Source: a virus (taxonomy: Duplodnaviria; Heunggongvirae; Uroviricota; Caudoviricetes). Taken from it: a stretch of 31,782 nt of DNA. The stretch lies in the IMG/VR virus record IMGVR_UViG_2645727991_000022; one strand, given 5' to 3'. The notes beneath the pieces are model-generated. The model ran no database searches. It was not told the DNA's origin and saw only the letters and a list, made by a program, of their open reading frames with translations. This document shows, piece by piece, positions 2,227 to 3,252 of the stretch. How positions within the stretch are numbered: the stretch's first letter is position 1; each line of letters begins with the position of its first letter. The translations under genes and the position numbers were made by a program.

Positions 2227-2823
2227 TTATCTCCAGCGGTAGTTAAACGTACCGCGTAATGTTCGTAGTTGTTTTATTACTTTTCGTTCTGTTTCATCGT
2301 AGAAATCAAATAATGGTTTTCTTCCTACGCTTCCATAGTAACCAACCACCCTTTTCTTACGTGCCATTGCTGGATCGCGTTTGCTAGAGTTTTTGGAAGT
2401 GTCAATAAGAAACTCTTTACCGTTCTTACTTTTCACTCGTTTGTATTTATCCTTGTTCTTTAATTGTGATATGTTTCCCTGCTTGGTTAGTTTTGCATTT
2501 TGATATGGAATCACTTTGTACTCTTGTTTTCGAACATAGTTAGGATCAATAATGTTCTTTAGGTAGTCTGCCTGATCTGGCATCACTATAATCTGATTAA
2601 TACTTGTAAAACCATTTGGCTTATAGAAGTTAAACTTCATTGCACGGTTTGTATAAGCTACTACGCCACCAGCAGATTTAGTACTGATCTCTTGCTGAAT
2701 TTGCCTTGTTACAGTACGCATACGTTCACTAAGTTCTTTCTTGAACTGTTCACCAATCCTTGGTGAATTATCATTTATGAATTTCTTCATATCACTAGGG
2801 CTATTACCTCTCTTCCATCCCAT
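2227..2823 (-). CDS. hypothetical basic protein, possible partner or C-terminal module of the upstream GIY-YIG nuclease
   Basis: 198-aa lysine/arginine-rich ORF. Its ATG (2823-2821) immediately follows, in the same frame, the TAA stop (2826-2824) of the GIY-YIG ORF. AGAGGAA lies about 13 nt upstream. Confidence 0.5.
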   Translation of the reverse strand: MGWKRGNSPSDMKKFINDNSPRIGEQFKKELSERMRTVTRQIQQEISTKSAGGVVAYTNRAMKFNFYKPNGFTSINQIIVMPDQADYLKNIIDPNYVRKQEYKVIPYQNAKLTKQGNISQLKNKDKYKRVKSKNGKEFLIDTSKNSSKRDPAMARKKRVVGYYGSVGRKPLFDFYDETERKVIKQLRTLRGTFNYRWR

Positions 2824-3252
2824 TTAATTTAATTCCTCTATTAACTGTTGAATGATACGGAATGTTTCACCGTTATCATTTGGTATTCTTGCCTTAACCA
2901 TTACGGCTTTATTCACGCAATTAGATTTTGAACCAAATAGACCAATCAATGTTGCTTCTACTAATGCAGCTTGGTTTGTCGTAGGAAAACACCAAAGTAG
3001 ATATTTCTTATACTCTACGCCGTCGTCAATCATCTGATTAACTGATTTACTACTACTGGTATATGTTCGCCAGTTAGATGCTTTAGTACTGTCCTTTAGT
3101 TTCTTAATGTCTTTGATACCTTTGTAAACGCTTTTCACGCCGATATAAAATTCATTTGTATCAAAAGTGATTAAGTATACAAATGCTGCGTACTGCCCTG
3201 AATTAATATCTTCTACATCCCATTCATTTTTATTATAAACATCCCATTCCAT
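2824..3252 (-). CDS. GIY-YIG domain endonuclease (homing-endonuclease-like)
   Basis: 142 aa. N-terminal [17 protein letters not shown] has the GIY...YIG spacing (10 residues between the two Tyr). Downstream Glu and Asn in [20 protein letters not shown] are consistent with the GIY-YIG catalytic core. Confidence 0.6.

Follow-up and report, generated by a model that had tools for sequence, protein, structure and literature searches.

The GIY-YIG nuclease gene and the adjoining gene for a basic 198-amino-acid (aa) protein, p198, in IMG/VR virus record IMGVR_UViG_2645727991_000022 are very probably two independent genes that lie end to end, each translated on its own. The whole 31,782-nt stretch analyzed here (the window, whose numbering is used throughout) is a siphovirus-like prophage, and the two genes stand in its lysis region next to the gene for a 106-aa protein, p106. 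A preliminary description of the window drew attention to a junction at which the TAA stop of the 142-aa GIY-YIG open reading frame (ORF) is followed directly, in the same frame, by the ATG of p198. The sequence and coordinates of this junction are as described, and the pair does lie between lysis genes, with the lysozyme on one side and the holin on the other. Two explanations were offered at that point, a split or readthrough gene and a pair of coupled genes. The second is the right one, since no fused homologue exists and the frame is not conserved.

On the minus strand the junction reads ...ATA GAG GAA TTA AAT TAA ATG GGA TGG.... Close packing of this kind is common in the window, where 8 of 21 same-strand junctions have gaps of -4 to +5 nt. 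A second tight pair, formed by the tail-tip and DUF6950 genes (7645/7649), is likewise in frame, and one-third of tight junctions are expected to be in frame by chance. The in-frame TAA/ATG junction is therefore unremarkable and within chance expectation. A stop codon with an ATG directly behind it in frame does not alone signal recoding, and the present comparison corrects that tempting over-reading.

Homologues consistently encode two proteins. More than 55 related loci were fetched and every junction was measured. Intact members of the 85 p198 homologue clusters are 197-203 aa long, the shorter ones being fragments, and two members are deletion chimeras. The 35 GIY-YIG homologue clusters all measure 137-148 aa, except for one 109-aa fragment. 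A profile search of 1.84 billion representatives returned 36 p198 clusters, none of fusion length (0/36). The preliminary description had proposed a search of homologues for a single uninterrupted ORF; no uninterrupted GIY-YIG/p198 orthologue occurs among the 85, 35, and 36 clusters. Escherichia coli RefSeq genomes annotate the two ORFs separately, and in E. coli G3/10, which carries a 99% identical, degraded copy of the locus inserted in ybhA, both are listed as hypothetical proteins.

The frame relation also varies. The 30 distinct junction sequences comprise TAATG (14), a 1-nt overlap that places the two ORFs in different frames, ATGA (1), a gap of +1 nt (2), a gap of +9 nt (12), and a gap of 0 (1). 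Seventeen of the 30 are thus out of frame, those of the nearest relatives among them, while the 12 junctions with a 9-nt gap are in frame and many of these carry a second in-frame stop, TGA. The gap-0 type is common only to the window, E. coli G3/10, and one viral contig (L014), so neither the frame relation nor the single stop is conserved across homologues, and the window type represents one sub-lineage. In the nearest relatives (L015-L017; 87-91% aa identity), the junction reads AAxTAATGG in place of AATTAAATGG in the window. Because a single A separates these sequences, the in-frame arrangement goes back to a one-base insertion in an ancestral overlap. More distant relatives show ATGA, a gap of +10, or a 17-nt overlap. 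Conservation instead falls on the start of p198: its ATG and first residues (M-x-W-K/R-x-G) are kept in homologues, and a purine-rich Shine-Dalgarno equivalent (GAGGA, GGGGAG, or AAGGA) occupies the same place in relatives.

These junctions suggest a simple history. An ancestral 1-nt overlap, TAATG, would have gained one A in the window sub-lineage to become TAA-ATG, leaving the shared reading frame of the two genes as an accident of that insertion. p198 would initiate at its own ATG by means of the GAGGA Shine-Dalgarno sequence in the end of the upstream ORF, and termination-reinitiation probably also serves its start. Translationally coupled, overlapping phage genes are joined by TAATG or ATGA, and the relatives use exactly such junctions. 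The window junction is one base from TAATG and merely loses the overlap; otherwise it shows no substantive difference from these coupled pairs.

One observation weighs against full independence. The GIY-YIG and p198 genes are adjacent in every enterobacterial relative (>55 loci), and given this invariable adjacency a functional link between them may exist. The most developed form of such a link is a nuclease of two subunits, in which a Seg-like enzyme is split into two separately made polypeptides and p198 binds DNA in trans. The tight or overlapping junctions found in all enterobacterial relatives would suit this arrangement, as would the pairing of an acidic GIY-YIG protein (pI 5.5) that lacks a DNA-binding domain with a very basic partner (pI 10.3; 44 K+R). 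The full-length T4-like relatives, at 326-359 aa, also come near to the sum of 142 and 198. Such a split enzyme is nevertheless very unlikely. By hhalign, the p198 profile does not resemble the Seg-like endonucleases of RB16 and Vibrio phage D484 in their C-terminal halves, and p198 has a modeled fold that resembles a tail completion protein. Remote p198 homologues (20-36% identity) occur without a GIY-YIG gene in five loci (L070, L071, L080, L074, and L075). The order in L070, L071, and L080 is tail tip, a 92-94-aa transmembrane (TM)/coiled-coil protein, a 56-57-aa membrane ORF, the p198-like gene, a 115-aa protein, and an M15 endolysin. The p198 homologue directly follows the tail-tip gene in L075 and a 75-aa ORF in L074.

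The histories of the two genes are also incongruent. The identity of p198 to its window counterpart tracks that of the tail-tip C-terminus (Spearman 0.74) and not that of the GIY-YIG protein (-0.18), a pattern that is qualitative, as the loci are non-independent and were compared with a single reference, the window. Individual loci show the divergence in both directions. In L073 the GIY-YIG protein and the lysozyme are 65% and 72% identical to those of the window, against 32% for p198 and 41% for the tail tip, while in L020 the GIY-YIG protein is 41% identical, against 66% for p198 and 82% for the tail tip. p198 always travels with p106 and the tail tip rather than with the GIY-YIG gene. p198 almost certainly stands as a gene of its own, without relationship to the DNA-binding regions of Seg enzymes, and the proposal in the preliminary description that it supplies a DNA-binding domain does not hold, given the lack of Seg C-terminal similarity, the independent, tail-completion-like fold, and the occurrence of p198 without a GIY-YIG neighbor. 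Two outcomes had been named beforehand as refuting a single gene, namely separate genes with unrelated partners in homologues and an independent known fold for p198, and both were found.

The function of p198 is approached through its predicted structure, which slightly favors a tail completion protein. The AlphaFold2 (AF2) model reaches a predicted local distance difference test (pLDDT) score of 83 when remote homologues are added, and 40 with a 13-sequence alignment. Its chain runs from a long N-terminal helix through a hairpin and a short helix to a C-terminal helix, and a beta domain is inserted; the elements that define the tail-completion fold (long N-terminal helix, hairpin plus short helix, C-terminal helix) are all present in the model. 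The tail completion protein of phage 80alpha, gp51, is a monomer in the neck lumen that touches the end of the DNA as well as the tape measure (doi 10.1101/2024.12.10.627806). It has been equated with lambda gpZ, SPP1 gp16.1, and HK97 gp10, of which gpZ has an extra beta domain (doi 10.1101/2024.12.10.627806). The layout of the p198 model fits the published description of gp51 (PDB 9mu2 chain P) and gpZ, the inserted beta domain included, and its 198 residues compare with 192 for lambda gpZ. A structural comparison with BFVD returned HK97-gp10 and neck proteins as weak matches only. From the fold and the co-variation, p198 is probably a basic virion-assembly protein, analogous to gpZ, HK97 gp10, and gp51; like them it would occupy the neck lumen, next to the end of the DNA and the tape measure.

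Several results weigh against this assignment. Thirty p198 family members have no hit to Pfam HK97-gp10_like or Minor_tail_Z at E <= 1 and yield only noise in Pfam as a whole, and hhalign of the p198 profile with lambda gpZ gives a probability of 0.4%. Whereas tail completion genes lie between FII-like and U-like genes, the p198 gene follows the tail-tip gene among the lysis genes in all relatives. p198 thus differs from lambda gpZ, HK97 gp10, SPP1 gp16.1, and 80alpha gp51 in the absence of sequence or profile similarity as well as in gene position. The canonical neck slot of the window, from head-tail joining to tail terminator (FII-like to U-like), holds only a 97-aa, weakly FII-like ORF and a 145-aa ORF, the latter without a match among PDB sequences. 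The p198 profile found nothing in PDB sequences (hmmsearch), the p198 model found nothing in the PDB below E 0.7 (Foldseek), and neither p198 nor p106 has a hit in Pfam, PHROGs, NCBIfam, or PADLOC. The GenBank phage collection contains no sequenced phage with the locus or with p198. If the assignment is correct, a small uncharacterized phage family (~36 clusters at 50% identity) gains a testable identity as a relocated tail completion protein.

Other roles for p198 were considered. A spanin or disruptin-like lysis function was entertained, as p198 sits among lysis genes in both clades, and is not favored: p198 lacks a TM segment, a signal, and a lipobox, and is predicted to fold like a tail completion protein. 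The appearance of p198 as a domain of portal or terS proteins (P0084 and P0085) was rejected, these proteins being deletion chimeras with different junctions. Both are recurrent deletion remnants of the element from Klebsiella and Enterobacter, in which the final 54-57 residues of p198 continue, in frame, the N-terminus of the portal or of terS, and they are seen on 8 and 34 contigs.

The upstream gene belongs, as the preliminary description had it, to the GIY-YIG nucleases, and specifically to the Seg homing-endonuclease type. Residues 6-101 of its product score 62.3 bits with Pfam SegE_GIY-YIG (PF19835; E 6.6e-17), above the curated cut-off of 25, and the product also matches PHROG homing-endonuclease families and the PADLOC HEase model. 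PF19835 is present in 35 of 35 GIY-YIG homologue clusters. Neither the protein nor any of its module homologues has more than the catalytic domain. Across 40 module proteins, the motifs F-V-Y, Y-I-G-x-K, and W..Y.SS, the Glu in V-E-A-T-L, and the Asn in (V/L)-N-K vary little or not at all, and these motif residues are common to T4-like Seg enzymes. The module proteins have a Lys after YIG and nothing that clearly corresponds to the canonical I-TevI Arg. Searches of PDB sequences with phmmer and hmmsearch gave no match, endonuclease II (EndoII) included, and nothing relevant was found in the literature on GIY-YIG proteins in lysis cassettes or on PF19835.

A catalytic domain alone could be what is left of a larger enzyme, and the nearest full-length relatives are indeed Seg-type enzymes of more than twice the length with 31-39% identity. 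That the 142-aa ORF is a decaying, functionless homing-endonuclease remnant without its DNA-binding half is nonetheless highly improbable. Every relative, down to 41% identity, has an intact ORF of 137-148 aa. The ratio of nonsynonymous to synonymous substitution rates (dN/dS) against close relatives is 0.10-0.16, equal to that of neighboring genes (0.07-0.16 for p198). Since the motifs are invariant, the dN/dS values match those of the neighbors, and homologues are intact, the ORF is not a decaying remnant.

The distribution of the GIY-YIG gene points the same way. It is present in every locus with a p198 homologue of at least 30% identity and an intact upstream region (>55 loci), and the only loci without it are those of a distant sister clade, where an M15 endolysin is used, and a few short fragments. 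In enterobacterial relatives it always adjoins the GH24 lysozyme gene. The suggestion that the gene is a mobile insertion is therefore borne out in part: its absence from the distant sister clade agrees with insertion, but in all the enterobacterial relatives examined the gene is fixed and purifying selection acts on it. Related phages lacking the insertion had been proposed as a means to define the homing site; no close relative without the GIY-YIG gene was found, hence there is no homing target to propose.

Comparison with known enzymes clarifies what kind of protein this may be. Seg-type GIY-YIG homing endonucleases of T4-like phages, such as RB16p243, encoded between nrdC and nrdD, have a homologous N-terminal catalytic domain (31-39% identity) and the same F-x-Y, Y-I-G-x-K, W..Y.SS, Glu, and L-N-K motifs. 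Like theirs, the window gene is free-standing and wedged between conserved phage genes. Seg enzymes measure 326-359 aa, whereas the window protein has 142 aa and no DNA-binding half. Unlike the sporadic Seg-type enzymes, it occurs in all close and moderately distant relatives under purifying selection, and its setting is the late/lysis operon of a temperate siphovirus-like prophage rather than a T4-like genome. T4 endonuclease II (DenA) is a 136-aa, catalytic-domain-only GIY-YIG nuclease, and it shows that such a domain, at ~140 aa and with no separate DNA-binding domain, can be active as a phage nuclease. The window protein differs in having no detectable sequence match to this enzyme.

With neither a DNA-binding domain nor a sporadic distribution, the GIY-YIG protein is classed here, from its sequence, as a putative nuclease of homing-endonuclease ancestry and not as an active homing endonuclease. 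It is retained and probably domesticated. In the most economical history, a Seg-like endonuclease gene would have entered with or beside the GH24 lysozyme gene, would have lost or never had a DNA-binding half, and would then have been kept by selection. The prophage clade thus offers a candidate case of homing-endonuclease domestication, with a Seg-type GIY-YIG domain fixed and selected without its DNA-binding half. The stronger claim, that a domesticated SegE-like protein has a dedicated late function across the enterobacterial prophage clade and is not a selfish mobile gene, is doubtful. If true, the protein might, for example, cut host or competitor-phage DNA at lysis; alternatively, it might join the basic neck-lumen protein encoded beside it in acting on DNA ends.

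Least credible is the single-gene explanation, in which programmed stop-codon readthrough, or the recent splitting of one gene, accounts for a GIY-YIG endonuclease of 340 aa whose C-terminal domain binds DNA: the lone in-frame TAA of the window, a plausible summed length, and 12 more distinct junctions in frame across a 9-nt spacer speak for it, but it is refuted in favor of an ordinary coupled pair because no search found a fused orthologue, the frame varies (most distinct junctions, the closest relatives' included, are out of frame, many in-frame ones carry a second stop, and the window's own frame relation arose by a 1-nt insertion), the p198 ATG and Shine-Dalgarno sequence are conserved, and, of the E. 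coli stop codons, UAA is read through least. No stimulatory readthrough element is known for this stop context, which also counts against readthrough.

Table 1. Features of the GIY-YIG/p198 junction and the surrounding lysis region
Feature	Position	Strand	Remarks
GIY-YIG gene	2824..3252	-	Catalytic-domain-only, SegE-type
GIY-YIG ORF	3252..2824	-	142 aa
Stop of GIY-YIG ORF	2826..2824	-	TAA; read from the sequence
TAA/ATG junction	2821..2826	-	GIY-YIG stop abuts p198 ATG; same frame, gap 0
Start of p198 ORF	2823..2821	-	ATG; read from the sequence
Shine-Dalgarno-like GAGGA	2834..2838	-	10 nt 5' of p198 ATG, within 3' end of GIY-YIG ORF
p198 gene	2227..2823	-	Probable tail completion protein
p198 ORF	2823..2227	-	198 aa, basic
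p106 gene	1901..2221	-	Always after the p198 gene in all loci
3TM holin	1608..1919	-	Pfam GTA_holin_3TM; last gene of operon
Intrinsic terminator	1584..1606	-	9-bp stem with 5 GC pairs, then T run
GH24 lysozyme	3279..3746	+	Pfam Phage_lysozyme; divergent from GIY-YIG gene
93-aa protein	3759..4040	-	N-terminal TM and coiled coil; DUF2730/XhlA-like, lysis-associated

The remaining genes of the lysis region (Table 1) form a compact unit. The terminator, a strong one, closes a transcription unit of GIY-YIG, p198, p106, and holin genes, inside which no terminator-like site is found on the operon strand. The E. coli G3/10 annotation names the holin as 3TM-type. p106 has no match in family libraries or among PDB sequences. 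The sister clade without a GIY-YIG gene has a 115-aa form of p106 with a similar FP.Y N-terminus and KG.R..Y C-terminus. Orthologues of the 93-aa protein carry weak or faint DUF2730 and XhlA marks.

The lysozyme, which among PHROGs matches the T4-type tail lysozyme family best, is inverted within the minus-strand late operon, and 26 bp (3253..3278) separate its ATG from that of the GIY-YIG gene. Given so short a gap, the lysozyme promoter must lie within the GIY-YIG ORF, and the lysozyme gene is antisense to the late transcript that crosses it. The lysozyme is co-directional in a Yersinia pekkanenii relative (L066). In the corresponding region of distant relatives, a NUMOD3 protein is encoded upstream of DUF6950 (L071 1-183), and a Cys-rich ORF that is HNH-like by eye only adjoins a p198-like gene (L074 2388-2987). 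The tail/lysis region may repeatedly attract endonuclease-type genes.

The element as a whole is a ~33-kb siphovirus-like prophage in E. coli ybhA and consists mostly of structural and lysis genes. Its minus strand encodes a Nu1-like terS, a gpA-type terL, a lambda-family portal, and a fused protease-capsid protein, together with tail tube, tape measure (9299..11758), distal tail, DUF6950, and 1176-aa tail-tip proteins. The 93-aa TM/coiled-coil protein, the GH24 lysozyme (on the opposite strand), the GIY-YIG protein, p198, p106, and the 3TM holin follow. Host ybhA is split near codon 70 by the element (L001 18029-18250 and 34403-35020). A full-length ybhA-like HAD phosphatase gene lies just inside the left end (window 1..843), is 59-69% identical to the host fragments, and looks like a replacement for the disrupted host gene. 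In the E. coli G3/10 copy, an IS3 element replaces the region from the tail tip through terL (L001 25464-26626).

No replication or repressor genes are recognizable between terS and the serine-recombinase end (window 24600..31782). The cargo of this interval includes EAL, DUF2971, and DUF3800 genes, and a relative in yegD (L078 16456-27446) has ~10 kb of small unknown genes and a methyltransferase there. Two of the structural genes encode fused products. A 658-aa ORF (18231..20207) joins prohead protease (S78) and major capsid domains. A 560-aa ORF (15808..17490) combines a tail-tube N-domain with a tail-fibre C-domain, and a separate 156-aa tube protein is encoded at 12462..12932.
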